Source: an uncultured Pseudomonadota bacterium (GTDB lineage: Bacteria > Oederibacteriota > Muellerivitia > Muellerivitales > Muellerivitaceae). From it: a DNA stretch of 64,000 bases. Positions 2,160 through 13,459 of this stretch are shown here, piece after piece. Both the position numbers and the translations under genes were made by a program. Within the stretch, counting starts at the first letter, position 1. Each line of letters starts with the position of its first letter. The DNA lies in assembly GCA_963836235.1 (NCBI GenBank), contig CAWIIP010000002.1:1472001-1536000 (forward strand), given 5' to 3'. A model generated the notes under the pieces. The model searched no databases and was not told the origin of the DNA. It was given only the letters and a program-made list of their open reading frames with translations.

Positions 2160-2310
2160 CCCCCTTTTTTATCCCACTTAAATCAGGTTTTCTCCCCCTT
2201 CCCTAAAACCTGGGATTGGACTAAGCTTTTACTGTCTAAAAGTAGTCGAATATGCCGCTTCTCTTATTTTCATGGATGCTAATGAGGTTGATGTGGTTGA
2301 GAGGGACAAT

Positions 2311-3546
2311 ATGAATCGGAAATTTTTTTATGGGGCGGCCGCTTCTTGGTTGCTATTGGCCGGGATGGTATTAACGGGTTGTCCAAGTAAATTAACCATT
2401 CCTACCGCGCCTCCTCCTCCCCCGACAGCGACTTCCACCCTCGTCTCGACGAACAGCCCTTCCTTGACGCCCACAGGAACCCCGCCACCCGCCACCCACA
2501 CGCCTTCTTCGACCTGCAGTTTCACCCCGACGAATACCATTTCCCCCCCAACACCCACCTCGACCGCCACCAACACGGCCACGAATAGCCCGATCATCAC
2601 TTCGACGAATTCCCCGACCAACAGCGCCACTTCCACGAATACATTTACGGCCACCTTCACCCCGACGGCCACGCCCTCATTCACGATCACCAACACCCCA
2701 ACCGCCACCCCGACTCCCACCGGTCCTACCTCAACCCCGACCAGCACTTTCACTCCTCCCGCTTTCGACTTTTCTTCCGGCGTGACCAATTTGACGACGG
2801 GCCTTTATACTTTTAGCTGCGTCCATATTGGGGCCGGGGGTGTGGTGTCCATTTACGGCGCCGTCACCATTATGACGACCTGCTTTACCCTGGACGCCGG
2901 GGCGACTATTTCGGGAACGGGGAATGGGTACTTAGGAAATACCGGCGGGGGGCCGGGTGTCGGTTGGGGCGGCGCGGTGACTTGCGCCTGTGTTCCGCCT
3001 CTGTTGGGTTTTGGCGGGGGCGGGGGCCATGGTGGGGCGGGAGCGACTTTTTGCGATGGCGCTTCCTGCGCTCCCGGGGGAACCACCAACGACAATCCCG
3101 CGAATCCCACTTTAATGGGAAGCGCCGGGGGAAATGTCCAAGGTCTTTTAATCGGTTCCGGCTCAGGTGGAGCGCTGCTGAAAATCATTGTTTATGACCC
3201 TGTCGCAAACGCGGTGGCCCCGGCGACCGTGAATGGGACCATCGACATGACCGGGGGCGCGGGCGGGAGCGACTATACGGATGACGAATATAGCGGCGGG
3301 GGCGCGGGGGGAGCGGTCTACCTTGAGGCCAGCACCCTTTCCGGAACCGGGCTCGTGCAGGCCAACGGCGGGGCGGCGAATTATTCGGGCGGCGGCGGGG
3401 GGGGCCTAATCTCTTTCCTTGAAAATTTAACCTCCTTTCCGGGAACAACTTCCGTGGTGGGCGGCATTTCGGCCAGCAGTTCTTCCGACGACGGCGCTCC
3501 CGGAACGGTGACCTTCACCACGGCGCCGGTGAGCGGCTACCTTTAA
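2311..3546 (+). CDS. Lipoprotein with Pro/Thr-rich stalk and Gly-rich C-terminal domain
   Basis: Signal with LTG-C lipobox; TPT repeats; GGGGG...GGAGG beta-helix-like tail. ATG 2311 follows GAGGGA. Confidence 0.75.
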   Translation: MNRKFFYGAAASWLLLAGMVLTGCPSKLTIPTAPPPPPTATSTLVSTNSPSLTPTGTPPPATHTPSSTCSFTPTNTISPPTPTSTATNTATNSPIITSTNSPTNSATSTNTFTATFTPTATPSFTITNTPTATPTPTGPTSTPTSTFTPPAFDFSSGVTNLTTGLYTFSCVHIGAGGVVSIYGAVTIMTTCFTLDAGATISGTGNGYLGNTGGGPGVGWGGAVTCACVPPLLGFGGGGGHGGAGATFCDGASCAPGGTTNDNPANPTLMGSAGGNVQGLLIGSGSGGALLKIIVYDPVANAVAPATVNGTIDMTGGAGGSDYTDDEYSGGGAGGAVYLEASTLSGTGLVQANGGAANYSGGGGGGLISFLENLTSFPGTTSVVGGISASSSSDDGAPGTVTFTTAPVSGYL

Positions 3547-4121: not shown

Positions 4122-4169
4122 AAAAGTCGGTGGATTCTTTGTTAGGACCAACGAAGCGTTCTGTAAAGT

Positions 4170-4197
4170 TGTCCACGACGGGGACCCTTCGTGGACA
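4170..4197. repeat. 28-bp palindromic cassette repeat R1
   Basis: TGTCCACGACGGGGACCCTTCGTGGACA. Confidence 0.95.
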
Positions 4198-4230: not shown

Positions 4231-4536
4231 ATGCTGGAATTGAGGCCCACTTGCGAGAATTGCAATAAACCTTTGCCGCCTGAATCCCTAGAAGCGAGGA
4301 TTTGTACCTACGAGTGCACATTTTGCTCGGCTTGCGTGGAGCTTCTTGAAAATGTATGCCCCAGTTGCGGCGGTGGATTCTGTCCCAGGCCCATCCGGCC
4401 AAAAACCAATTGGAAGGGCGATAATTATCTGGGGAAAGACCCGGCGAGTACTAAGATCAAGCACCGCCCCGTTGATTTAAAAGAACATGCCCAGTTTTCT
4501 CTTCCGATTAAGAATCTGCCGCCTGAAAAAAGATAA
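4231..4536 (+). CDS. DUF1272 family Cys-rich protein
   Basis: MLELRPTCENC...ARICTYECTFC..C....NVCP.CGG...RP.RP signature; AAGGAG RBS before ATG 4231. Confidence 0.9.
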   Translation: MLELRPTCENCNKPLPPESLEARICTYECTFCSACVELLENVCPSCGGGFCPRPIRPKTNWKGDNYLGKDPASTKIKHRPVDLKEHAQFSLPIKNLPPEKR

Positions 4537-4543
4537 TGGGCGT

Positions 4544-4562
4544 TGTCCACGATGGGGACCCA
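4544..4562. repeat. Repeat R2, left part (5' exon of intron)
   Basis: TGTCCACGATGGGGACCCA; the remaining TCGTGGACA is at 6493-6501. Confidence 0.93.
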
Positions 4563-6492
4563 GCGCGCCAAGAAAGCTGTTGTTCATCCAGTCGGCTGAA
4601 ATGTGCCGACCCAGACAAAATTTGGCAGTCTGGTAGCAGGGAGCCGAATCGGGCAGGGTAACCTGCCAGGTTCAAGCGGCTCGACAAAGGGCGGCAAAGC
4701 GCCCGATGCGAAAGGACGGGTCGTAACACGTGTGAACCTAGGTGTAACCTCGTAACGTCGAGATTGAGGAGGGTGACCCTTTTGGGTCTTGGGGAAACCA
4801 GTATTCCATGCGGGAGCCAGAAATACGCATGGGACTGCTTCGGGGTAACAGGGGCGACACGTCCAGACGGAGAACAACGGAACTTGGGAGACCCATAGGG
4901 AAGCACAAGGTACCTGCCTATAAGTCTAAGCGGCGAAATGGCAGGGAGAGCCTATGGGAGTCAGACAAGCCTACAGTAGCTATGAGGGCTAGGACTAAAC
5001 CTAGTCAGAGCAAAGGGGCTTGACCTGGGTAGAGCTTGGCCAGGAGAGAGGGACAAGGGATTGGCGATGAGCCTAGTAACCCTACAAAAAGTTCAGGATC
5101 TTCAGCACAAGCTAGCTGGGAGGAGTAAGTCAAAGCCGAAAGAACGTTTCTACAGTCTCTACGACAAGGTGTGCCGGAAAGAGGTTCTGTGGGAAGCATG
5201 GCAGAAGGTGAAGGGCAATGGAGGTTCCGGAGGAGTGGACGGGGTAACGGTGGAAGGTATAAAGGCCACCGGAGAGAAGGAATACCTGCGGGCACTCTGG
5301 ACGGAGCTGAAGGAAAAGGAATATAAGCCATTGCCGCTCAGGCGGGTTTGGATACTAAAGGCCAACGGGAAGAAAAGGCCCTTGGGGATACCGACGGTGA
5401 AAGACCGGATTGTACAGCAAGCGGTACGATTCGTTATGGAGCCGATCTTCGAGGCGCACTTCTCGGAAGTGTCCTTTGGATTCAGGCCAGGCCGGGACTG
5501 CCATCAGGCCATCACCAGAGTGGTGACATACCTAAATTGGGGTATGGTGAACGTGGTTGAGACGGACATTGTGGACTGCTTCGGAAGTATCCCACATGGA
5601 AGGCTGTTGAAAGCGGTGGCTCGCAGGATAGCCGACAAAGGTATCCTGAGGGTGATCCGGCAATGGCTGAAATGCGGGGTGATGGAAGAAGGGCAGTTCC
5701 AAGAAACGACCACGGGAACGCCTCAAGGAGGGGTGATTTCGCCGCTTCTGGCGAATATTTACCTGGATGCGCTGGATCAACTTTGGAAGAAGCGGAAGAT
5801 GGATTCCAAAAGCGGATACAACGCCCAAATGGTCAGATACGCCGATGACATGGTAATTCTCACGGATCGGAGCCCCCGGGAGGCGGAAAGGCTGCTGAGG
5901 GAAACCTTGGGCAGACTGGATTTGAAGCCTCACCCGGAAAAGACGCGGGTGGTGAACGCAAAGGCAGGGGATTTTAACTTTCTGGGGTTCAATTTCCGAC
6001 AGCGGAAGAATCCCCGAACAGGGAGAAGCCAATGCCTGTTTCAACCCTCGCAGAAGGCCCAAAAGAATGTGCGGGAGAAAATCAGACTGGCTACAGCAAG
6101 CCCGGAGTTAAATGAACTGGGTAAGGTGGTCAGAGAGAAAGTTAATCCCATTCTGAGAGGGTGGGTGAATTACTTTCGGATCGGAAACTCCAGCAAAACT
6201 TTTAATAATCTCCGGAACTTTGCAAAGAAGAGAGTCCTGCGATTTATTCGCAGGAGGAAGAAACAAAGCGGGCCAGGTTGGGACAGGATCAGCGAGGATT
6301 TCCTTTATGGGAAGCTGGGCCTGTTTAAGGAATACCGGGTGAAACGGTTTTCTCAACCCGCTGTGGCTTAGACGAAGGGCCTCCGGTGAATACCCTTGGA
6401 AAGCCGTATGCGGGAAAACCGCACGTACGGTTTGATGAGGAGGCGTTGGAAACGTGCCGGTTATCCGGTGACGCGCCAGTGCTTTACTCTAT
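4563..6492 (+). mobile_element. Complete group II intron inserted in repeat R2
   Basis: 5' GCGCG; EBS1 TGGGTC (4783-4788) in a stem-loop is complementary to IBS1 GACCCA; D5 AAGCCGTATGCGGGAAAACCGCACGTACGGTTT (6401-6433); D6 with bulged A; ends ACTCTAT. Excision restores a perfect palindrome. Confidence 0.93.
5067..6371 (+). CDS. ltrA: Group II intron reverse transcriptase/maturase without HNH endonuclease domain
   Basis: GVDG, RPLGIPTVKDR, SFGFRPGR, GTPQGGVISPLLANIYL, VRYADD, FLGF, domain X RGWVNYF; ORF ends before any En domain. Confidence 0.96.
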   Translation: MSLVTLQKVQDLQHKLAGRSKSKPKERFYSLYDKVCRKEVLWEAWQKVKGNGGSGGVDGVTVEGIKATGEKEYLRALWTELKEKEYKPLPLRRVWILKANGKKRPLGIPTVKDRIVQQAVRFVMEPIFEAHFSEVSFGFRPGRDCHQAITRVVTYLNWGMVNVVETDIVDCFGSIPHGRLLKAVARRIADKGILRVIRQWLKCGVMEEGQFQETTTGTPQGGVISPLLANIYLDALDQLWKKRKMDSKSGYNAQMVRYADDMVILTDRSPREAERLLRETLGRLDLKPHPEKTRVVNAKAGDFNFLGFNFRQRKNPRTGRSQCLFQPSQKAQKNVREKIRLATASPELNELGKVVREKVNPILRGWVNYFRIGNSSKTFNNLRNFAKKRVLRFIRRRKKQSGPGWDRISEDFLYGKLGLFKEYRVKRFSQPAVA

Positions 6493-6501
6493 TCGTGGAC
6501 A
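6493..6501. repeat. Repeat R2, right arm (3' exon)
   Basis: TCGTGGACA directly after the intron 3' end. Confidence 0.9.
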
Positions 6502-6506
6502 CTTAA

Positions 6507-7148
6507 TTGACGGAAAGGGCATTTATGCATGACCGGGAACTAAGAATAAAAATGGTAAGTTTTGTCAAAGAATCGCCAAGCGCGACCCTTTTGCTTTGTT
6601 TTATGGCCGGCATTGTCATCACGCGAACGCTTACTACTTTTGGTTTTGGCTTTAATTATTTCTTTGCGTTTTTATTGCTTTCCGGCTCATTCTTGATTTT
6701 TAGGGTATTGAATTTAAACAGAACGGCTGTCCTTTTAAGCCCCGATTCCATCCAATTTTTCGAATCGATTCCCGTGCAAAGTTTTATCCTGGCTACGAAA
6801 AAAGTGAATGCTAAATGGGAGGATGTGACAAAAGTTCAAACCTATGAAACGTTGATGCAAAAATGGGAATATCGGCAACCTAAAAGTCCCGCTTTTGGGG
6901 GGGCGGTATGGGGTTCGGAGATTCAGTTGAATGATTTGTTTATATTAAAAACTAAACTTTACGTGAGGATTGCGGACAGTTTGAAAGAAAAAAGTTTTAC
7001 GATTTCTATGACTAATGAAAAATATCCCGAATACCTGATTTATTTAAAAAACAAACTGGATCCTTCGAAAATGGATTCGAAAACGATTGAGCTGCAAAAT
7101 CCAAAAATATTGATGGACGAGATGATGAAACGAAAAGTTTTTATTTAA
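6507..7148 (+). CDS. Hypothetical membrane protein (AT-rich cassette cargo)
   Basis: Two N-terminal TM helices plus a soluble domain; true start may be ATG 6523 region or later. Confidence 0.65.
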   Translation: MTERAFMHDRELRIKMVSFVKESPSATLLLCFMAGIVITRTLTTFGFGFNYFFAFLLLSGSFLIFRVLNLNRTAVLLSPDSIQFFESIPVQSFILATKKVNAKWEDVTKVQTYETLMQKWEYRQPKSPAFGGAVWGSEIQLNDLFILKTKLYVRIADSLKEKSFTISMTNEKYPEYLIYLKNKLDPSKMDSKTIELQNPKILMDEMMKRKVFI

Positions 7149-7155
7149 GCAATAT

Positions 7156-7183
7156 TGTCCACGGCGGGGACCCATCGTGGACA
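7156..7183. repeat. 28-bp repeat R3
   Basis: TGTCCACGGCGGGGACCCATCGTGGACA. Confidence 0.95.
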
Positions 7184-7206
7184 CCTAAGAAAGCAATAAT
7201 CAGTAC

Positions 7207-7253
7207 TTGCCACGGAGAAACTTTGGGCATAAAATGTACATCATCATGTACAT
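7207..7253 (+). promoter_or_regulatory. sigma70 promoter with TA autoregulatory operator
   Basis: TTGCCA-N17-TAAAAT overlapping two ATGTACAT palindromes (7234-7241, 7246-7253). Confidence 0.75.
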
Positions 7254-7265
7254 AAGGAGTTGCTC

Positions 7266-7547
7266 GTGACACCAACTAGCTTTACCATTGCACAGGCCCG
7301 AATCCATTTTCCCGGGCTCATCCACGATGCGGAAAAAGGGAAGCCGGTGGAGATAACCCGGCGAGGGAAACCGGTTGCCGTCTTGGTATCGGTGGATGCC
7401 TACCGGCATTTGACCGCACCCCGTCCCGGGTTTTGGGAGGTTGTTTCGGCCTTCCACGGCCGTATCAAAGCGAGTAAGGCCGGTTTGGAACCTAAAGATC
7501 TCCGGGGAATCCGCGAAACCGGACCCGGAAGAGAATTTAAGTGGTGA
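7266..7547 (+). CDS. Phd/YefM antitoxin
   Basis: FTIAQAR..F..LI....G.PVEITRRGKPVAVLVS; GTG after AAGGAG. Confidence 0.9.
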   Translation: MTPTSFTIAQARIHFPGLIHDAEKGKPVEITRRGKPVAVLVSVDAYRHLTAPRPGFWEVVSAFHGRIKASKAGLEPKDLRGIRETGPGREFKW

Positions 7548-7975
7548 AGCCCCGGTACTTGTTAGACACCAATGTCGTTTCGGAAGCAGCCCGTGTAAAA
7601 CCAAATCCCAATGTGATGAGAAAACTTGAGCGGCACAAAGACGAAATGGGAATCGCAAGTATTGTTTGGCATGAACTCGTCTTCGGCTGCGACCGCTTGC
7701 CACCCTCCGAAAAACGGACCCTTTTAGAGGAATTCCTTTCGGAATTAGCAAACTCCTCCATGTTAATTTTTCCTTATGACACGGAAGCGGCTGCTTGGCA
7801 CGGCCGGGAGCGTGCCCGTTTATCCAGACTGGGACTTACACCGGCATTCGCGGATGGGCAGATTGCTTCCATCGCGAAAGTCCATGATTTGATCCTGGTC
7901 ACCAACAACATCCGGAATTACCGTCATTTCGATCAACTGAAGATGGAGAATTGGCACGGCATGGCTAAAAATTGA
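7541..7975 (+). CDS. vapC: PIN-domain VapC toxin
   Basis: YLLDTNVVSE, EL..G, ADGQIASIA, LVTNN; overlaps antitoxin. Confidence 0.93.
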   Translation: MVKPRYLLDTNVVSEAARVKPNPNVMRKLERHKDEMGIASIVWHELVFGCDRLPPSEKRTLLEEFLSELANSSMLIFPYDTEAAAWHGRERARLSRLGLTPAFADGQIASIAKVHDLILVTNNIRNYRHFDQLKMENWHGMAKN

Positions 7976-7983
7976 AAAATGCT

Positions 7984-8011
7984 TGTCCACGATGGGGACC
8001 CGTCGTGGACA
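7984..8011. repeat. 28-bp repeat R4
   Basis: TGTCCACGATGGGGACCCGTCGTGGACA. Confidence 0.95.
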
Positions 8012-8076
8012 ATCATTTCTGCCACAAAAGGGTTAATATAAAGACGCCGTAAGTTGTTGCGTTGGAGAGGTGAATT

Positions 8077-8571: not shown

Positions 8572-8656
8572 ATTTCTTCATGCGCTCCTTTATGGTCGAA
8601 TTACCTGGGATTTGTTGGTTCGTAAATCGGAATGGGGTCTTTGGTCATTTAGAGCT

Positions 8657-8684
8657 TGTCCACGACGGGGACCCACATTGGACA
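8657..8684. repeat. 28-bp repeat R5
   Basis: TGTCCACGACGGGGACCCACATTGGACA (right arm partly diverged). Confidence 0.9.
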
Positions 8685-10099: not shown

Positions 10100-10277
10100 G
10101 AGCTTGGCTGGTGGGGTCTATCCATGCCCCTTTCATCCCTTTAAAACAGGCCTTTTTCACTTCTTTAAAATAATTTGGATTTAACCGGCCTTTTCCCGTC
10201 TAAAGGTTGGCGGTTATGACGCTAGTCCTATTTCCATTATCCCCTGGGAGGAGATGATGGTTCTTACGGGGGAAAAT

Positions 10278-11606
10278 ATGGAACGGAAATTCTTTCTCGG
10301 GGTAGTGGTCTCTTGGATGTTGTCGGCCGGACTGGTTTTAACAGGTTGCCCCAGCCACCTCGGGGTTCCTTCCGCGCCCCCGCCTCCCTTGACGGCGACT
10401 TCCACCTTCGCTTCGACCAATAGCCCTTCTTTAACGCCCACGGCAACCGCCCCGGCGCTCACTCTGACGGGGACTCCCACCCAAACCGTAACAAGTACCG
10501 CCACCAACAGTCCGACATTTACCCCCTTGTCTTCCACCGCGACCTTCACCTTTACGCCCAGCTTTACGCTGAGCCCCATCCCAACACTCACCGTCACGAA
10601 TACGCCGACTAGCGGGGCGAACACTTTCACCCCGACTCTCACCTGGAGTCCGACCGGCATCGTCCCCCTCACCTTTACCCTTACCACCACCGCCTGCCCG
10701 ACCCACACCGCCACCTTATCTGTCACACCTACCCCCTCCAATACGGCCACGGTGACTCCTATCGGTTCTTGGTATACCTCCACCCCAACGGGTACTCCCA
10801 CCATCACCGGAACTCCCACTCTCACCGGCACGCCCACCCACACCGGAACCCCGACTAGCACCCTGCCGCCACCGCCCACTTTTACCGGCACGCCGACCCA
10901 GACTCCCAACGCCACGGCGACTTCCTGCCCTCCCGGTTTCGTGATGGGGAACAACAGCGTGGGGCTTTATGAGGATACGGACACCCAAAGGCTGAAACTC
11001 AACCGTTACACCGCGCCTTATAACACGACCCTCTATAGCATCACCGGCGCTTATTACAACGGAGGATTCACGCCGGATTTCACCTTCGCCGTTTACGACG
11101 ATAACGGAAGCGGAACCGCGCCGACCACCTTGTTGAGCCAGGCGGTTTATCCCTCCACCAGCGGCAGTTATGCCTACAGCTATCCTTGGGCCACCTTCAA
11201 CCTGGCGACTCCGGTCACCGTCACGACTAGGAAATATTATTGGCTTGGGTACAGCCTCAACGCGGGTTATTTCTTTTACAGTCCGACCACGTCGGTGACT
11301 TACGCTTATCAATATCCGGCCCCGCCGCAATCCTTGCCCTCCAGTTTTTCGGGAACCGTCAATCCCGTCGGAACTAACTACGTCCTGTCCCTTTACGTCA
11401 ACGGCTGTCCCTTCACCCCCCTGCCCAATACCCCGACTTACACGGCGACGATGACGCCCACTTCCAGCTTCACTTTCACGGTCACGCCGACGCCCACCGA
11501 CAGCCTCACGCCGACTCCCACGCCGATAGGAAGCTGGTTCACCGCCACCCCGACCATGACTCCCACGCCGACAATCACCTTCACTCCCACCGCCACGCCG
11601 ACCTGA
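10278..11606 (+). CDS. Pro/Thr-rich lipoprotein, paralog of 2311..3546 with a different central domain
   Basis: LTG-C lipobox; shared N-terminus; Tyr-rich beta-sandwich-like domain (AVYDDNG...P..LL, YWLG) between TPT tracts. Confidence 0.75.
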   Translation: MERKFFLGVVVSWMLSAGLVLTGCPSHLGVPSAPPPPLTATSTFASTNSPSLTPTATAPALTLTGTPTQTVTSTATNSPTFTPLSSTATFTFTPSFTLSPIPTLTVTNTPTSGANTFTPTLTWSPTGIVPLTFTLTTTACPTHTATLSVTPTPSNTATVTPIGSWYTSTPTGTPTITGTPTLTGTPTHTGTPTSTLPPPPTFTGTPTQTPNATATSCPPGFVMGNNSVGLYEDTDTQRLKLNRYTAPYNTTLYSITGAYYNGGFTPDFTFAVYDDNGSGTAPTTLLSQAVYPSTSGSYAYSYPWATFNLATPVTVTTRKYYWLGYSLNAGYFFYSPTTSVTYAYQYPAPPQSLPSSFSGTVNPVGTNYVLSLYVNGCPFTPLPNTPTYTATMTPTSSFTFTVTPTPTDSLTPTPTPIGSWFTATPTMTPTPTITFTPTATPT

Positions 11607-11811: not shown

Positions 11812-12549
11812 ATGACCATGGAAATTGACTACAGCAAGCCCATAGGCCGAATCGCCGTTGAAATCAGCGGGGCGGTATCGCTCTTTGAAAAATACGGGAT
11901 CGATTATTACCGGGAAGCTGAAAAGGAACTTGTAACGGCTTGTTCCATTGCCGGGGCACCCTTGGATCAGGTCGAATCCGAGCTGAAAAAAATCAAGGAA
12001 CCCATACCTGCCCTTTGGTATCAGCAGGAACCCGACTGGTCGCGGGAAACCATGGCCTCCTTGATCCACTACATCGTCCAGGTCCACCACACCAAAGCCC
12101 GTTCGCTTTTGGATGACATCGTGAGGGAGTTAGACCTCTCGCGGGAAACGAAACAAGAGCCCGGGAGATTGCAGGTCCTTCGGAACCTTTTCTTGGAGTT
12201 TGAGGCCGAACTTCGCAATCACCTGTTGGAGGAAGAAGAAACCATATTCCTTTATTTAATCCATACCGAGAGGGCTTTGGAAAAGGGCCAAGCCCCGGGG
12301 AATCTCGCGCCCATGGAAAAGGGCTTTTCCAACTCGATCCGCGAGATTCTTTTCGAACACCGGTTCATGGACAGGGGGTTCGAACAGATTGAGAAGCTCA
12401 TGCACTTGATCAATGACGAAGCCTCGGCGGTATCCTTGAAAAACCTGGTGGAAGCGTTGTCGGCTTTAAAAAAAGACAATGAAAAGCATGTCCACCTGGA
12501 AAACAGAAAACTTTTCGGGCGCAGCGCCCAACTGGGGCTGATGGATTAA
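11812..12549 (+). CDS. RIC/YtfE/ScdA-like di-iron hemerythrin protein, copy 1
   Basis: ScdA_N-like FEKYGID, LI.YI...HH, HL..EE..F, EH, HVHLEN. Confidence 0.8.
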   Translation: MTMEIDYSKPIGRIAVEISGAVSLFEKYGIDYYREAEKELVTACSIAGAPLDQVESELKKIKEPIPALWYQQEPDWSRETMASLIHYIVQVHHTKARSLLDDIVRELDLSRETKQEPGRLQVLRNLFLEFEAELRNHLLEEEETIFLYLIHTERALEKGQAPGNLAPMEKGFSNSIREILFEHRFMDRGFEQIEKLMHLINDEASAVSLKNLVEALSALKKDNEKHVHLENRKLFGRSAQLGLMD

Positions 12550-12730: not shown

Positions 12731-13459
12731 ATGGAAATAGACACTACCAAACCCATCCGCCAAATCGCCGTTGAAGTCAGCGGGGCGGCCACTCTCTTCG
12801 AGAAATTCGGGATCGATTATTACGGCGAGGGAAACCGGGAACTGAAGGTGGCTTGTTCCATGGTCGGCGTGCCTTTGAGCCATGTCGAGACGGAATTGAA
12901 AAAGAGATACACGATTCCCGCCTCCTGGCGCGAGCGGGAACCCGATTGGTCGCGGGAAAACATGGCGTCGCTGATCCATTACATCATTCATGTCCACCAT
13001 GTCAAAACCAGGGCGCTGTTGGACGACATCGGGCGGGAACTGGCCCTTTTGCGAGACAGCCACAAGGAACGCGAAAGATTGGATGTCCTCCGAAATCTTT
13101 TCCAGGAAATCGACGACGAACTGAGGGACCATATGTTGGACGAGGAAAAAGTGATCTTCCCTTACCTCATTTACGCCGAGAGAGCCTTGGAGAAGGGCGA
13201 GGTGATTGGGGACGTTCTTCAGATGAACAAGGGTTTTTCCGACTCGATCCGCGAAATCCTTTTTGAGCACCGTTTCATGGACCGGGGATTTCAAGAGATG
13301 GATAAGCTTATGTACCTGATCAATGACGAAAGCGCGGGAGATTCCCTGAAAGCCCTGGCGAAGGCGGTGGAGGCCCTCATCCAAGACAACGAAAAGCATA
13401 TCCAACTGGAAAACAACAAACTCTTCCGCCGCAGCGCCCAACTGGGGCTGATGGAATAA
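12731..13459 (+). CDS. RIC/YtfE/ScdA-like protein, copy 2 (tandem paralog)
   Basis: Same motifs (HH, HMLDEE, EH, HIQLENN.LF); colinear with copy 1. Confidence 0.82.
   Translation: MEIDTTKPIRQIAVEVSGAATLFEKFGIDYYGEGNRELKVACSMVGVPLSHVETELKKRYTIPASWREREPDWSRENMASLIHYIIHVHHVKTRALLDDIGRELALLRDSHKERERLDVLRNLFQEIDDELRDHMLDEEKVIFPYLIYAERALEKGEVIGDVLQMNKGFSDSIREILFEHRFMDRGFQEMDKLMYLINDESAGDSLKALAKAVEALIQDNEKHIQLENNKLFRRSAQLGLME

Follow-up and report, generated by a model that had tools for sequence, protein, structure and literature searches.

Three target specificities of bacterial group II introns are named in PMC4424553: ordinary homing sites, terminator hairpins and the attC sites of integrons. 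Class C (IIC) introns are described as using only a shortened exon-binding site 1 (EBS1) together with EBS3, and as inserting after terminator or attC stem-loops (PMC3522654, PMC3753933, PMC4424553). According to PMC4424553, introns of classes C, D, E and F without exception lack the endonuclease (En) domain, as does a minority of chloroplast-like (CL) introns, and the copying of En-less introns is primed at the replication fork. The intron RmInt1 is reported as En-less, with priming that depends on replication (PMC4075523, PMC3522654, PMC4424553). Here we describe a group II intron from a 64,000-nt stretch of contig CAWIIP010000002.1 (assembly GCA_963836235.1), hereafter the window, from the genome of an uncultured bacterium (G000; 3.97 Mb, 5 contigs). 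The intron splits R2, one of five neighbouring copies (R1 to R5) of a 29-nt palindromic repeat that lies between gene cassettes. In our judgement it is probably a mobile group II intron that lacks an endonuclease, has been active recently, recognises its exons in a IIB-like manner and targets this cassette repeat.

Insertion of the intron at one position of the repeat

When the sequences on either side of the intron are joined, positions 4543-4562 (TTGTCCACGATGGGGACCCA) and 6493-6501 (TCGTGGACA) make a perfect copy of the repeat, as found intact at 4169, 7155, 7983 and 8656. The Rfam scan of the window agrees with these limits, the match to RF00029 (domains V and VI, D5/D6; 51.5 bits, gathering 40) covering 6399-6492 and ending exactly at 6492. 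The boundary at 4563 is supported by the alignment of the intron 5' end with GUGCGCCAAGA of L056, another D1D4-6-type intron. That the repeat halves are the intron's own terminal inverted repeats was ruled out by the 63 uninterrupted copies of the repeat and by the Rfam boundaries, which fall exactly between the halves.

The evidence for homing comes from further insertions of the same intron. A second copy lies on another contig (G000:C1:223050-224979), at the same nucleotide position of another repeat copy, and shows 2 differences in 1930 nt from the window intron. Its junctions read TTGTCCACGACGGGGACCCA before and TCGTGGACAAAG after the intron; the 20-nt 5' exon is that of the window with GAC in place of GAT, and the flanks outside the repeat are unrelated to those in the window. 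A third insertion is carried by a 2187-nt contig of run X2, from another study, which covers 4543-6493 with 67 differences (~96.6% identical). It has the same left half-repeat as 5' exon and is unlike the window upstream of 4543, and its 3' exon is T (6493) followed by unrelated sequence with no right arm. Since this copy was inserted in a half-site, neither the right arm nor, with it, the hairpin is needed. The three independent insertions at one repeat position, two in the genome and one in X2, all with the same 5' exon, support site-specific homing. Near-identical copies at three independent sites are also indirect evidence that the window intron splices and is retromobile. Among metagenome sequences, a cluster of intron-encoded proteins (IEPs) 98% identical to that of the window (P0001; 434 aa) holds 8 sequences on 4 contigs.

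The sequence predicted to recognise the target, EBS1, lies in the loop of a hairpin that the Rfam model aligns to a variable terminal loop. Its pairing with intron-binding site 1 (IBS1) could extend to UGGGUCUU with GGGACCCA by using two G-U pairs. In the Rfam alignment, the 13 nt immediately 5' of the EBS1 hairpin (UAACGUCGAGAUU) have no pairing partner. Within this stretch, CGUCG can pair with CGACG, or with CGAUG via one G-U pair, and its position in the alignment and the comparison with a relative (L094, below) point to it as a candidate EBS2. IBS2 and IBS1 together would make a contiguous 13-nt site, CGAYGGGGACCCA. The GACCCA hexamer occurs 1913 times in the genome, about 1937 being expected, and the 13-mer occurs 10 times, always in a repeat copy: two of these sites are occupied, seven carry T at +1 and are free, and the last, R5, carries C there. 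Because the hexamer is at chance level while both copies of the intron sit in CGAYGGGGACCCA sites, recognition reaches beyond the hexamer.

The ribozyme was compared with covariance models and by folding. The scaffold of domains I to IV matches RF02005 above its gathering threshold, and the same model gives 81.3 bits for L094, a relative with 80% IEP identity. D5 folds into two helical parts, of 8 bp and 5 bp, with AC as a 2-nt bulge and a loop of 5 nt; the region 6395-6492 has a minimum free energy of -41.6 kcal/mol (z -4.62). The bulged A of D6 sits 7 nt before the intron 3' end, which is AU (6491-6492). Both the catalytic AGC triad and the bulged branch-point A are present. The IEP contains by Pfam only RVT_1 and GIIM, with no HNH/En (D/En) domain; it scores 412 bits with NCBIfam TIGR04416 (cut-off 300), and its YADD motif, read from the sequence, is intact. 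It has therefore the reverse transcriptase (RT) and maturase of a bacterial group II intron with an open reading frame (ORF).

Searches with the IEP against RTs of solved structure (phmmer) gave 192 bits for GsI-IIC, 188 for 7uim, 184 for TeI4h and 166 for LtrA, scores that do not separate class C from CL, to which TeI4h belongs. The best plasmid-borne relatives (tblastn) are 39-45% identical and carry no class labels, and the Rfam D1D4-4 and D1D4-6 models bear no class names. PMC3552965, PMC3753933 and PMC3522654 offered no applicable mark of class that is independent of sequence. Ribozymes of 450-700 nt are given for IIE and IIF introns, and of 412 nt for a IIC intron, in PMC3753933; without its ORF the window intron RNA measures ~620 nt, inside the former range and over the latter value. 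In place of the shortened EBS1 and EBS3 without EBS2 that mark IIC introns, an EBS1 of 6 bp exact, or at most 8 with G-U pairs, and a candidate EBS2 were found, and the intron lies within the 3' arm of the palindrome rather than just downstream of a stem-loop, the X2 copy being in a half-site that makes no hairpin. As far as the evidence goes, the window intron is not IIC-like in target recognition, and the evidence reaches no further on class.

These results bear on several claims of the first-pass annotation of this DNA, made from its letters alone. It had the 1930-nt intron splitting R2 between GACCCA and TCGTGGACA, which the Rfam boundaries and the restored repeat confirm, and an EBS1 at 4783-4788 exactly complementary to GACCCA, a hexamer also present in R3 and R5, as is the case; the homing that it proposed and its RT without endonuclease are likewise upheld by the three insertions and by the Pfam domains. 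It had set the intron apart from IIC on the strength of the AGC triad and the full-length D5. For target recognition this stands, on the stronger grounds that EBS1 pairs over 6-8 bp, that there is a candidate EBS2, that the intron lies inside the palindrome and not after it, and that one insertion is in a half-site unable to form a hairpin; as a statement on the class of the IEP it is neither borne out nor contradicted, class C and CL being left together by the solved-structure scores.

Relatives of the window intron were sought. IEP matches at E<=1e-30 were present in 11 of the 41 genomes searched (G000 included), and neither the 40 related genomes nor the 31 genomes of the family yielded an IEP above 47% identity. 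Metagenome clusters are closer: besides P0001, clusters P0002, P0003 and P0004 are 81%, 80% and 74% identical to the window IEP. The closest relative with fetched DNA context is L094, a metagenome contig that probably belongs to P0003. Its ribozyme is otherwise conserved and differs in exactly two stretches, the EBS1 loop (CCCUGUAGUGAAUUGGGG) and the 13-nt stretch that holds the candidate EBS2 (beginning AAAUACUAAG). Its 3' exon, AAAAATAACC, is unrelated and has no repeat arm, and its 5' exon is missing because the contig stops short of it. With other EBS loops and another 3' exon at 80% IEP identity, L094 indicates that the retargeting to the repeat was recent. The earlier view of a separate lineage adapted to the repeat is thus kept as regards site-specific homing, and given up as a property of the whole lineage. 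It had been stated in advance that close homologs at unrelated targets would make this a chance ectopic insertion; L094 is one such homolog and goes part of the way towards that refutation; we read it as recent retargeting and not as a chance ectopic hit. Another metagenome contig, L095 (1516 nt), holds a 5'-truncated copy of the window's lineage (IEP 84% identical) with a frameshift or early stop near YADD. This copy adjoins a different group II intron at the latter's 3' end (X domain, D5, D6) and says nothing on the target.

Positions of the intron, its parts and its surroundings in the window
Feature	Position	Strand	Remarks
Group II intron, complete	4563..6492	+	1930 nt, 5' GCGCGCC ... CUAU 3'; Rfam matches and repeat restored by junction
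Domain I region	4600..4855	+	Rfam RF02005 (group-II-D1D4-6), 60.4 bits, gathering 49
Candidate EBS2 CGUCG	4756..4760	+	in 13-nt unpaired stretch just 5' of EBS1 hairpin
EBS1 UGGGUC	4783-4788	+	exact complement of GACCCA; extended UGGGUCUU, 4783..4790
IEP	5067..6371	+	434 aa from ATG 5067 (436 aa from TTG 5061); RT and maturase (X), YADD
Domain V	6401..6433	+	33 nt, AGC triad 6402-6404, AC bulge
Domain VI	6437..6489	+	bulged branch-point A at 6486
Repeat R2, left arm and centre (5' exon)	4543..4562	+	TTGTCCACGATGGGGACCCA
Proposed IBS2 CGATG	4550-4554	+	putative pairing with EBS2 candidate
IBS1 GACCCA	4557-4562	+	extendable to GGGACCCA (4555-4562)
Repeat R2, right arm (3' exon start)	6493..6501	+	TCGTGGACA; first base T, presumed IBS3
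Repeat R1, intact	4169..4197	+	GACCCT, no IBS1 match; DNA hairpin -10.3 kcal/mol
Upstream cassette ORF (DUF1272)	4231..4536	+	stop codon 6 nt before R2
Downstream cassette ORF, no Pfam family	6525..7148	+	stop codon 6 nt before R3
Repeat R3, intact, unoccupied	7155..7183	+	GACCCA then T; IBS2 CGGCG, would pair via one G-U
Repeat R4, intact	7983..8011	+	GACCCG
Repeat R5, intact	8656..8684	+	GACCCA then C; degenerate right arm

The cassette repeat and other introns that use it

The repeat (TTGTCCACGAYGGGGACCCNTCGTGGACA) was searched for in the genome with the pattern GTCCACGRYGGGGACCC, allowing at most 1 mismatch, which returned 65 matches and none for the reversed control. The stricter core GTCCACGACGGGGACCC (at most 1 mismatch) has 59 copies; 5 are singletons and the others stand in 11 multi-copy arrays of uniform orientation. 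Each repeat comes after the stop codon of a same-strand ORF, by roughly 5-85 nt where an ORF was called, and its palindrome is predicted to form a DNA hairpin of -6 to -14 kcal/mol. The cassette ORFs are accessory genes unrelated to one another, a content reminiscent of integron cassettes; they encode a GNAT acetyltransferase, HAD hydrolases, a BrnT/RHH toxin-antitoxin pair, a LOG-family protein, an NHL-repeat protein, an outer-membrane beta-barrel, DUF1272 and unknowns. For 56 of the 59 stricter-core repeats, and in all 11 multi-copy arrays, the ORF-sense strand is the locally G-rich strand (GC skew over +-100 kb), from which we take the arrays to be co-oriented with the presumed direction of replication. 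The repeat 17-mer is present in 22 of 24 genomes of the family that were searched and in the single genome searched of a sister family in the order; elsewhere in the phylum it occurs only as a few 1-mismatch matches. The repeat is conserved in sequence, and not in structure alone, across at least 16 genera of one family.

Comparison of arrays points to exchange of cassettes at this site. Identical cassettes are found in different arrays with different neighbours, and in the two informative pairs they cease to match just 3' of GGGGACCC. A joint 4187->7156 in run X1, which may be the source sample, has only 21 letters on one side and falls in repeats, and it was left out of account. For the R3-R4 cassette (window 7156-8012), counterparts with 90-92% identity are present in L113 (G001:C6), from the same genus as the window genome, and in L112 (G018:C33), from another genus. 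In both its neighbours differ and it lies on contigs other than those with homologs of the flanking core genes, which are only 71-79% identical in these two genomes. In a three-way alignment of this cassette, homology runs from the upstream repeat to the left arm and GGGGACCC of the downstream repeat, and the right arms differ. Because shared cassettes break at GGGGACCC and the R3-R4 cassette exceeds the core genes in identity, the repeat behaves, in this handful of comparisons, like a junction between mobile gene cassettes, the crossover falling about 1 nt away from where the window intron is inserted. The arrays are thus made of same-orientation pairs of ORF and site, with cassettes that recur beside different neighbours. 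The earlier expectation that the sites are numerous and mobile agrees with the 65 copies and with the cassettes shared between genomes; the accompanying suggestion that the RT may contribute to cassette genesis finds no support in these data.

Known recombination and repeat systems were considered for this site. With the integron integrase model TIGR02249 the best score in the genome is 41 bits, and none of 31 family genomes reaches the 265-bit cut-off, which led us to reject an integron with IntI in these genomes. By inspection only, with no attC covariance model applied, the 29-nt palindrome lacks the R''/R' GTTRRRY cores. Repetitive extragenic palindromes (REPs) with their associated transposases (RAYTs) were also discarded: none of three Y1_Tnp ORFs is flanked by the repeat, and the repeats stand in same-orientation arrays after stop codons. 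REPs tagged with CGTC are described as having 8-9 bp stems and forming dimers (PMC3733652), unlike the window repeat. Tyrosine recombinase paralogs of ~370 aa were rejected as the cassette recombinase, being multi-copy, in one case beside a tRNA gene (L046), and present also in the repeat-free genomes G017 and G029; they look like island integrases. The only Xer-like recombinase in the genome (G000:C1:328954-329805) scores 154.6 bits on the XerD model TIGR02225, whose cut-off is 329.6, and a role for this enzyme in cassette recombination is speculation. A palindrome that is nearly perfect and asymmetric at its centre would fit an Xer system with one recombinase. The palindrome is a probable new cassette recombination site.

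The repeat is also used by two other intron lineages, designated (a) and (c), the window intron being lineage (b) in this comparison. Intron boundaries were set where multi-copy introns diverge, and the five loci L074, L077, L082, L048 and L050 were left out on account of their 5' boundaries. In the IEP tree and identity matrix the three form separate clades, with 40% identity between (a) and (b), 42-44% between (b) and (c) and 36-38% between (a) and (c). Introns of lineage (a), which have the canonical 5' GUGCG, insert between TTGTCCACGAYG and GGGACCCNTCGTGGACA, so that the site reads TTGTCCACGAYG followed by GGGACCC, and their EBS1, CGUCGUG, is the complement of CACGACG. They lie at the repeat in 5 of the 8 loci read, namely L089, L091 and L093 (3 of 11 copies in G045), L051 (G001) and L052 (G018), and elsewhere in L053, L079 and L076. 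Introns of lineage (c), with 5' UCGUGCC, insert immediately 3' of the whole palindrome, which ends in GTCGTGGACA, after GTGGACA; their EBS1, UGUCCAC or UGUCUAC, matches GTGGACA or GTAGACA. At 13 of 16 loci read they are at the repeat, including all 9 copies fetched from G042 (6 of them in GGGGACCC orientation, the other 3 in GGGTCC orientation) as well as L059, L080, L049 and L060; L085, L087 and the third intron of the window genome itself are elsewhere. In sister genera, two unrelated lineages have converged on the same repeat at other positions, each with an EBS1 that fits its own site.

Three further observations concern these lineages. In L091 (G045:C3:752-5020), one repeat copy holds two introns, of lineage (a) inside the left arm and of lineage (c) directly after the right arm. 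The lineage (a) IEPs of L089 (G045) and L051 (G001) are 96% identical although their hosts belong to different genera, which suggests recent horizontal spread, possibly with cassettes. The third group II intron of the window genome, of lineage (c) type, lies on C2 at about 504.8-506.8 kb (minus strand, about 2226-4306 of L046, G000:C2:502500-510500); it starts with GUGUGCC, has EBS1 UUCAUGC and follows the non-repeat target CCGCATGGG, with a ~370-aa integrase and a tRNA gene a few kb away.

We put forward tentatively, and as somewhat short of an even chance, that the repeat belongs to an undescribed integron-like cassette system without IntI, possibly with the single Xer-like enzyme of these genomes as recombinase, whose top strand is exposed on the lagging-strand template, and that EBS1 has been retargeted independently in at least three intron lineages, to three positions of its 29-nt site, which would serve them as a safe, multi-copy, horizontally travelling landing pad. 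If true, the family would offer a natural case of competition between intron homing and cassette recombination over the same nucleotides.

Two pairs of paralogs lie in the same part of the window. The genes at 2272-3546 and 10254-11606 flank the array region, with 5' parts 73-81% identical at a spacing of 7967 nt, and bear long Thr/Pro-rich repeats; an ORF with NTPT repeats beside the L094 intron resembles them. The adjacent divergent ORFs at 11818-12549 and 12731-13459, of about 245 aa, are tandem paralogs with three blocks in common, which are 70-79% identical in nucleotides and lie about 910 nt apart.

Probable homing to the repeat and alternative explanations

The following course of homing is proposed. 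The intron ribonucleoprotein would find its DNA target by pairing with the top strand of the 29-nt repeat: EBS1 UGGGUC, possibly UGGGUCUU, with GACCCA (GGGACCCA), the candidate EBS2 CGUCG with the adjoining CGAYG, and EBS3 with T at +1. Reverse splicing would then take place between GGGGACCCA and TCGTGGACA and, with no En domain in the IEP, copying would have to use a primer from the replication fork. The repeat would be a good target, being multi-copy, with 10 strict sites in the genome of which 2 are occupied, and bounding cassettes that move within and between genomes. Since it lies in intergenic DNA just after stop codons, insertion should be harmless. The intron shares the orientation of the cassette ORFs, so that splicing of read-through transcripts could remove it and re-form the repeat in RNA; in DNA it parts the two halves of the cassette junction. 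EBS1, and probably also EBS2, would have been retargeted recently within the lineage of the window intron.

Several observations weigh against this account. The intron's 5' end (GCGCGCCAAGA) is GCGCG, its C at position 2 departing from GUGYG. The same GCGCGCC start is found in an RNA-library contig ~95% identical, from another run, so that GCGCG looks like a trait of the lineage; the RNA-library contigs (run X11), ~95% alike, are not evidence of transcription of the window locus. Related intron lineages of the bacterial family start with UCGUG, GCGUG or GUGUG. The EBS2 pairing is only 5 bp, and its support comes from where it lies in the Rfam alignment and from a single comparison, with L094, which lacks the 5' exon; in the same stretch of three other D1D4-6 introns, pairing is convincing for L054 and not clear for L062 and L056. 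Seven strict sites with T at +1 are empty, which may reflect low mobility or a very recent invasion. The second copy is at a solitary repeat on a strand that is locally not G-rich (skew -0.007), so that no preference for a replication strand can be claimed, the window copy being in a region of weakly positive skew. The closest relative with context, L094, does not use the repeat.

Part of this evidence could be accommodated by other explanations. Insertion may be guided by structure, as for IIC introns, if the DNA hairpin of the palindrome were recognised and the short IBS1 match were secondary. The target is indeed a strong single-stranded-DNA hairpin (-6 to -14 kcal/mol), and lineage (c) introns stand directly after the complete hairpin in either orientation; even these, however, pair 7 nt of the arm with their own EBS1. 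The window intron inserts inside the 3' arm, so that pairing of EBS1 (and EBS2) with the loop and 5' arm precludes a folded hairpin, and the X2 copy is in a half-site without the right arm. The IEP lacks En, as do those of class C, and has GsI-IIC as its top solved-structure match, yet the 192 bits of this match are about equal to the 184 bits of the CL-type TeI4h, and an EBS1 of 6-8 bp differs from the shortened IIC type as described in PMC3753933 and PMC3522654. We consider this explanation very unlikely. A single chance ectopic retrotransposition, followed by spread of the intron-bearing repeat by DNA recombination or cassette movement with no retrohoming, is very improbable: a moving cassette would bring its neighbouring ORF along with the intron, and the three insertions share the intron and the repeat only, with left arms that read GAT or GAC and with unrelated neighbouring cassettes. 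Cassettes and repeats do recombine, and L094, the closest relative, is at another target, as such a history would have it; EBS1, and apparently EBS2, are nevertheless tailored to the site.

It may also be that the intron homed in the past and is now a splicing-defective or immobile relic, through its 5' GCGCG or other lesions, which merely inactivates a cassette junction. The non-canonical 5' end and the occupation of only 2 of 9 strict T+1 sites would be in keeping with this. Such decay is hard to reconcile with a 434-aa ORF that is intact with YADD, with intact D5, D6 and branch-point A, with two copies that differ at 2 of 1930 nt, with a 98%-identical IEP cluster of 8 sequences on 4 contigs and with the presence of GCGCGCC in a ~95% alike contig from another run, and we regard it as very unlikely. 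We favour the reading of a recently active intron that homes to the repeat by base pairing.

Comparison with described systems

The nearest counterparts are the IIC-attC introns, for example S.ma.I2, which also lack En, occupy a multi-copy hairpin site between cassettes and split the junction on insertion. These are class C introns, described in PMC7923331 and PMC4424553 as recognising a stem-loop and short IBS1/IBS3 on the bottom strand and as lying opposite to cassette transcription. The window intron differs from them in its 6-8 bp EBS1, its candidate EBS2, its position inside the palindrome and its orientation, which is that of the cassettes, on the same strand as the ORFs at 4231-4536 and 6525-7148. 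Its site is a sequence-conserved 29-nt palindrome, and no IntI over the cut-off was found in any of the 31 family genomes.

Introns of the IIB type beside attC sites are reported from halophiles by Sonbol and Siam 2021 (PMC7923331): UHB.I2, of class CL, and H.ha.F1 and H.ha.F2, of class E. Like the window intron they are non-IIC and En-less and occur in cassette arrays or in clusters of attC sites lacking integrases (CALINs), and UHB.I2 is oriented as the cassettes. In the account given there, they are single or 5'-truncated and follow attC, the exons of their homologs are poorly conserved, and no pairing with attC is shown. The present system is unlike these in having three independent insertions at one nucleotide with a matching EBS1, together with two more lineages.

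Homing by EBS-IBS pairing into multi-copy mobile DNA is shared with RmInt1, of class D, which targets ISRm2011-2, and with Escherichia coli introns in insertion sequence (IS) elements, as far as these are described in the sources cited above. The target here is not a transposase gene: it is a 29-nt intergenic palindrome, conserved in the family and bounding cassettes. The use of short intergenic palindromes as safe landing sites resembles class C introns after terminators, REP-associated IS elements and a Pseudomonas putida intron; of the 9 copies of a group II intron in P. putida KT2440, 2 are scored as REP-associated in PMC1525189. Those associations with terminators and REPs are outside the hairpin and partial, in contrast with the window intron, which pairs with the repeat itself and lies in ORF-repeat arrays, not REP dimers.

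Literature searches that covered texts other than supplementary files gave no description of the repeat or of introns inside it. The convergence of lineages on a 29-nt site provides a compact natural experiment in the retargeting of EBS loops, shows introns choosing harmless, multi-copy, horizontally mobile DNA, and bears on whether introns hinder cassette recombination or ride on it. The repeat itself, as a probable new cassette recombination site, is worth study in its own right. Compared with the precedents, what is new here is the combination of sequence-based, IIB-like recognition, insertion inside a palindrome, cassette orientation, genomes without IntI, and three intron lineages on one 29-nt site.

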